A DNA stretch of 64,000 nt from assembly GCF_057098645.1 (NCBI RefSeq), contig NZ_CM169472.1; one strand, given 5' to 3'. Under the pieces are notes generated by a model. That model had not been told where the DNA came from, made no database searches, and was given only the letters and a program-made list of their open reading frames with translations. Positions 22,928 to 23,211 of this stretch are shown piece after piece. The position numbers and the translations under genes are program-made. Each line of letters opens with the position of its first letter. The stretch's first letter is position 1.

Positions 22928-23015
22928 AAAAAAAACCTGCGCATCCGCGCAGGTTGGTGCAAGAGACAGGGTACGAAGAGCGTACCGAATAATCTCACCA
23001 ATCAATACCTCTGGG
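22928..23015 (-). ncRNA. omrA: Small RNA OmrA (RygA), 88 nt
   Basis: Minus strand reads CCCAGAGGTATTGATTGGTGAGATTATTCGG...CCTGCGCGGATGCGCAGG + T8; matches recalled OmrA sequence including terminator. Confidence 0.9.
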
Positions 23016-23129
23016 ATCTTGATTGTGGTCTGCACGACGACCCTTCGCCAGCGAGAAAACGCAAAGGAATGAAGGGAAATGCAACGAGGTGTGTAAATTG
23101 TCGGTTACTGTTACAGATTGATGACCGGC

Positions 23130-23211
23130 AAAAAAAACCTGCGCATCTGCGCAGGCTGGTGTAATTCATGTGCTCAACCCGAAGTTGACTTCACCTATCA
23201 ATACCTCTGGG
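23130..23211 (-). ncRNA. omrB: Small RNA OmrB (RygB), 82 nt
   Basis: Minus strand reads CCCAGAGGTATTGATAGGTGAAGTCAACTTCGGG...CCTGCGCAGATGCGCAGG + T8; shared 5' seed with OmrA. Confidence 0.9.

Follow-up and report, generated by a model that had tools for sequence, protein, structure and literature searches.

OmrA and OmrB are a pair of small RNAs that bind Hfq, and both Hfq and RNase E are required for their repression of ompT and cirA (PMC2588501). Their conserved 5' end pairs near the translation initiation region and is needed for all tested targets, the interactions relying on short complementary stretches, and since ompR is also repressed the two RNAs feed back on their own activator (PMC2588501). 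OmpR-P directly activates both omrA and omrB in vitro on templates spanning -114 to +50, whereas an omrA template reaching to -60 was not activated (PMC5175337). The two promoters differ in that omrA depends almost completely on sigma-S through a C at position -12 while omrB does not (review PMC12692685), and RstB-RstA in multicopy activates omrB specifically (PMC13425233). Species that carry a single copy always keep the omrB-type promoter (PMC13425233).

The 64-kb stretch of DNA analysed here (hereafter the window) was scanned as a whole against Rfam at gathering thresholds, and three matches were obtained, of which two were to RF00079 (OmrA-B). The first was located at 22928-23015 on the minus strand (96.6 bits, E 6e-18) and the second at 23130-23211 on the same strand (86.1 bits, E 2e-15). 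Both covered model positions 1-87 of 87 and scored more than twice the gathering score of 40 bits, which places the two copies in the family. The outer ends of the matches coincide exactly with the limits of the interval 22928-23211 in which the original prediction had placed a tandem OmrA and OmrB, and the Rfam search that it proposed as a check therefore supported it with two full length matches. When aligned with the K-12 genes, 22928-23015 was 100% identical to omrA (b4444, 88 nt) and 23130-23211 was 100% identical to omrB (b4445, 82 nt), in agreement with the remark in the prediction that these RNAs are well known. The copy-specific central region together with the length (88 versus 82 nt) assigned 22928-23015 to OmrA and 23130-23211 to OmrB, both on the minus strand; strand and assignment had not been given in the prediction. 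We consider it close to certain (probability about 0.98) that the interval consists of the paralogues omrB and omrA in the standard Enterobacteriaceae arrangement, as independent units that encode Hfq-dependent regulators pairing through their 5' ends; none of the observations speaks against this identification. The present analysis itself established the identity of the sequences, the family they belong to, the anatomy of the genes, their synteny and the covariation in their structure, while regulation, Hfq dependence and targets in the strain of the window would be expected to follow what the literature reports for identical sequences. The omrA and omrB genes found here are fully known already and the local copies are wild type.

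The two genes are flanked as predicted by aas and galR. A 719-aa open reading frame at 20681-22840 on the minus strand (aas) is located downstream of omrA on the same strand, and a 343-aa open reading frame at 23425-24456 on the plus strand (galR) is divergent from omrB; both are annotated in a matching genome. Along the direction of transcription omrB lies upstream and omrA downstream, head to tail and with 114 nt between them, within an aas-galR intergenic region of 584 nt (22841-23424) that has one base unlike K-12. A 751-nt stretch covering the locus (window 22700-23450) was matched in 5,423 of 5,426 complete E. coli genomes, and on sequence grounds the DNA of the window is that of E. coli. 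The 15 matches listed for this stretch, all of them 100% identical, were from O145 or O145:H28 strains. No match was obtained in three of the 5,426 complete E. coli genomes, and in 18 others the match covered less than 80% of the aas-omr-galR stretch. One of the places where the stretch was found was on a plasmid, and at least one E. coli genome had it in two places. The missing, partial and extra places could be due to deletions, IS insertions or a translocated copy.

With respect to annotation, the RefSeq (PGAP) record of O145 strain RM9872, in which the 751-nt stretch is matched exactly, has no feature between aas and galR, whereas the curated K-12 MG1655 record has the ncRNAs omrA and omrB on the minus strand at this place, so that the locus is, as had been anticipated, invisible to annotation based on open reading frames. 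No CDS is annotated between aas and galR in either the RM9872 RefSeq record or the K-12 record. Small open reading frames of 31-78 aa that overlap the two RNAs were considered as coding genes and rejected, being mechanical reading frames within sequences that are the same as those of characterised non-coding RNAs. In genomes of pathogenic E. coli, omrA and omrB are left out by standard RefSeq annotation, and the 584-nt gap between aas and galR consequently seems devoid of genes; it nevertheless codes for two RNAs that regulate the composition of the outer membrane, the uptake of iron, motility and the formation of biofilms. Pipelines that search for unexplained intergenic conservation should first mask known small RNAs with Rfam. 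Few small RNAs of enterobacteria are as well characterised as OmrA and OmrB, and the significance of finding them here goes little beyond annotation hygiene.

Both RNAs have the same three-part layout. A 5' stretch of some 21 nt is followed by a central hairpin that is specific to each copy and enclosed in a GGUG/CACC stem, and the RNA ends with a terminator hairpin and U8. The omrA gene (88 nt, 22928-23015, minus strand) starts at 23015 and its U-tail ends at 22928, and the omrB gene (82 nt, 23130-23211, minus strand) runs from 23211 to 23130, both as delimited by RF00079 and the identity to K-12. The target-pairing region, nt 1-21, is CCCAGAGGTATTGATTGGTGA in OmrA (22995-23015, minus strand) and CCCAGAGGTATTGATAGGTGA in OmrB (23191-23211, minus strand), as found by alignment and as a direct repeat; this common block of 21 nt has a single difference, at position 16. 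The common 5' seed that had been claimed for the two RNAs was recovered as the 15-mer CCCAGAGGTATTGAT, present at 23001-23015 and at 23197-23211 on the minus strand, that is at the 5' ends of both RNAs. These two matches compare with 0.10 expected in the window, and none of 100 shuffles reached two; allowing up to two mismatches, there was no occurrence in the 64 kb outside the two 5' ends. The repeat finder extended the similarity to a 24-nt block comprising the 5' end and three promoter bases (96% identical between the copies) and detected in addition a 35-nt block common to both 3' ends (91% identical). Both copies have at the transcript start the conserved 5' end CCCAGAGGUAUUGAU-N-GGUGA that is characteristic of RF00079, as well as the conserved 3' module of the family, made up of the CACC arm, a G+C-rich terminator hairpin and a U-tail.

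The central hairpin specific to OmrA (GGTACG-CTCTT-CGTACC, six pairs, 22970-22986 on the minus strand) was found by the hairpin scan, in the minimum free energy (MFE) fold and in the Rfam consensus structure. The statement that each small RNA has its own terminator was confirmed by the terminator scan, which located a hairpin and T8 at 22955-22934 for omrA and at 23157-23136 for omrB. As combined from scan and fold, the intrinsic terminators of OmrA (22928-22955, minus strand) and OmrB (23130-23157, minus strand) are built alike, with a nine-pair stem (six G-C), a 4-nt loop and then U8, and in OmrA the terminator hairpin and U8 form a typical Hfq-binding 3' module. The MFE folds were more stable than those of dinucleotide shuffles for both RNAs (OmrA, -29.5 kcal/mol, z = -2.68; OmrB, -26.6 kcal/mol, z = -2.91). 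In the predicted fold of OmrA nt 1-15 are unpaired. In the MFE fold of OmrB nt 7-15 of the seed are paired internally, and the accessibility of the OmrB seed therefore rests on Hfq and experiment and not on the fold.

In the mechanism proposed for this locus, omrA and omrB would each be transcribed from their own promoter and ended by their own intrinsic terminator, with EnvZ-OmpR controlling the synthesis of both RNAs. Hfq would be bound through the terminator hairpin and U-tail, and the unpaired, nearly identical 5' ends would pair at or near the ribosome-binding sites of target mRNAs, which would include ompT, cirA, fecA, fepA, ompR-envZ, csgD, flhDC, dgcM, flgM and btuB. Pairing would block translation and promote RNase E-dependent decay, and repression of ompR would close a negative feedback loop on OmrA and OmrB synthesis. 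For ompR, nt 1-9 of both RNAs are predicted to pair with positions -18 to -10, overlapping the Shine-Dalgarno sequence, and compared with shuffled seeds the duplex energy ranked within the best 1.3% for OmrA and the best 4.4% for OmrB. The duplex over the Shine-Dalgarno region of cirA was no better than those formed by shuffled seeds, 36% and 23% of which did as well, and this result indicated that pairing by such a short seed cannot be shown by energy alone, in agreement with the published reliance of the interactions on short complementarity (PMC2588501).

The omrA promoter region takes up the entire 114 nt that separate the omrA start from the omrB terminator (23016-23129, minus strand), read directly from the sequence, and the omrB promoter region (-1 to -114, 23212-23325, minus strand) was 100% identical to K-12 in the alignment. 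Neither promoter was found in a scan for consensus sigma-70 promoters, and we ascribe this to their weak -35 regions, which are to be expected where a promoter depends on an activator. The known transcription starts were used as the reference for placing the -10 boxes. The -10 box of omrA is CACAAT (23022-23027, minus strand) with C at -12 and that of omrB is TAAAGT (23218-23223, minus strand) with T at -12, which are the bases described for the two genes (PMC12692685). Activation by OmpR-P would be expected here by comparison with the K-12 fragments from -114 to +50, to which omrB is identical and from which omrA differs by one base.

That base is a lineage-specific variant at position -27 of omrA (23042, minus strand), detected in the K-12 alignment, where the transcribed-sense strand has G in the window and A in K-12. 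When 5,406 complete E. coli genomes were searched with a 61-mer containing the variant, only 25 of them had it with 100% identity; judged from the sequence comparison, the variant is a clade marker. This difference from K-12 in the spacer between the -35 and -10 boxes and its rarity are what could be raised in favour of decayed or silent copies, i.e. genes that are still recognisable but are no longer transcribed in this lineage, for example if the change at -27 disables the omrA promoter. Several observations argue against such a loss. No difference from K-12 is seen in the transcribed sequences, in the two -10 boxes or anywhere in the omrB promoter, the length of the spacer in omrA is unchanged, and position -27 is outside the -10 and -35 hexamers as well as the -60 to -114 region needed for OmpR (PMC5175337). 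Furthermore, the change could touch omrA at most and not omrB. We regard silencing of the copies as very improbable. A milder consequence, that the A-to-G change at -27 measurably alters the sigma-S- or OmpR-dependent expression of OmrA in the clade, is somewhat less improbable but still unlikely; if true, it would shift the regulation of the outer membrane, iron uptake, motility or biofilm formation in these strains.

A different explanation would be that the interval contains only a generic repeated terminator or intergenic repeat and that the Rfam matches are driven by a hairpin and a U-tail. That hairpins resembling terminators can attract chance matches was evident from a permissive Rfam scan of 22700-23500 for additional RNAs, in which only sub-threshold matches were obtained, all of them taken as chance. 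Leu_leader (27.8 and 23.2 bits against a gathering score of 50) and SgrS (15.2 bits against 37) overlapped the Omr terminators and were rejected, as was TeloSII_ncR49 (24.5 bits against 55). The OmrA-B matches, on the other hand, span the model over its full 87 positions, so that both the 21-nt 5' end and the central stems are covered, the genes are 100% identical to experimentally characterised ones, and the pattern is found nowhere else in the 64-kb window. These full length matches to RF00079, the K-12 identity and the uniqueness in the window refute the generic repeat, and the interval is accordingly read as tandem omrB and omrA.

The rest of the window contains two insertion sequences that are 100% identical, 1,331 bp long and inverted relative to each other, at 36451-37781 (plus strand) and 44891-46220 (minus strand). 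Both have the overlapping orfA and orfB transposase frames of the IS3 family, and we take them to be IS2-like from their length and termini. Each is flanked by a 5-bp target duplication, GAAAC for one and CAAAC for the other, and both are absent from the otherwise about 99.9% identical chromosome of O145 RM9872. The two elements bracket about 7.1 kb, and the one at 36451-37781 interrupts sctN, the ATPase gene of the ETT2 type III secretion system. A second type III secretion system island, ETT2-like and decayed, extends with the insertion sequences over approximately 35065-42200, the coordinates being taken from the RM9872 annotation up to 36450 and shifted beyond that point. In the near-identical genome of RM9872 the island shows a frameshift in the export-apparatus gene, an internal stop in sctC and one truncated gene. 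A tRNA-Gly gene (anticodon CCC) at 47319-47392 on the minus strand adjoins the ETT2-like island and the second copy of the insertion sequence.

To compare the locus across species, species-representative genomes were scanned with CCCAGAGGTATTGATNGGTGA, which gave at least 120 loci; the sample required the exact 5' 21-mer, and conservation of the 5' end is therefore true by construction and says nothing independent on the seed. Among these listed loci, all those whose organism was named below phylum were from Enterobacterales, and the genera included Citrobacter, Enterobacter, Kluyvera, Serratia, Edwardsiella and Hafnia as well as Pantoea, Erwinia, Pectobacterium, Dickeya and Rahnella. Two copies on one strand were present in 58 of the 120 listed loci, mostly 188-307 nt apart, and a single copy in 60, in some cases because the locus is cut. 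The synteny seen in the window recurred in the other species, with aas and/or galR alongside the Omr gene or genes in 108 of the 120 listed loci and both in 63. In the tandem pairs of these loci the downstream copy was the longer one in 44 of 50, as in the window, with medians of 84 and 88 nt, and at -12 a T was read in 47 of the 50 upstream copies and a C in 32 of the 50 downstream ones. The -12 bases read across species match the published split between sigma-70 and sigma-S (PMC12692685).

Covariation was assessed for the outer stem and the terminator only, because the central hairpins of the different species were not alignable with one another. The GGUG/CACC stem was invariant across 141 distinct homologues. 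In the terminator stem of the same 141 homologues, double compensatory changes were observed at three pairs (U-A to C-G in 7, G-C to A-U in 37 and C-G to U-A in 9), and no non-standard pair occurred in the seven pairs from C-G inward. The sole non-standard pair in the terminator was one U-U, in 1 of the 141 sequences, at the outermost A-U/G-U pair.

Among other small RNAs that repress outer-membrane protein synthesis, RybB and MicA are controlled by sigma-E and not by EnvZ-OmpR. They act as OmrA and OmrB do, in that they have a conserved seed at the 5' end and a terminator that binds Hfq and repress the mRNAs of outer-membrane proteins (comparison in PMC2588501), but have no sequence kinship to OmrA and OmrB and fall outside RF00079, and no such Rfam family was matched in the window. 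The closest described system is the omr locus of K-12, where omrA (b4444, formerly rygA/sraE) and omrB (b4445, formerly rygB) have the same transcribed sequences, the same order galR-omrB-omrA-aas and the same strand as in the window. The two loci also agree in having a spacer of 114 nt, in their terminators and in their -10 boxes, and the two aas-galR intergenic regions match at 583 of 584 bases, the one difference being at -27 of the omrA promoter. In Erwiniaceae, two Omr copies are 2.03-2.10 kb apart on one strand and are not adjacent as they are in the window. Such wide-gap loci were L011 (Pantoea stewartii, 2747-4879), L024, L038, L056, L060, L069, L084 and L112, and the gap in L011 contains a gene in the same orientation for a 579-aa class B penicillin-binding protein (PF03717 and PF00905, FtsI-like). 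Other Enterobacterales resemble the window in having tandem same-strand pairs beside aas and galR, the 5' 21-mer, the GGUG/CACC stem and a covarying terminator. They differ in their divergent central regions and in a spacing of 188-307 nt, and many species have a single copy, whereas the window has the plain Escherichia form of the locus.
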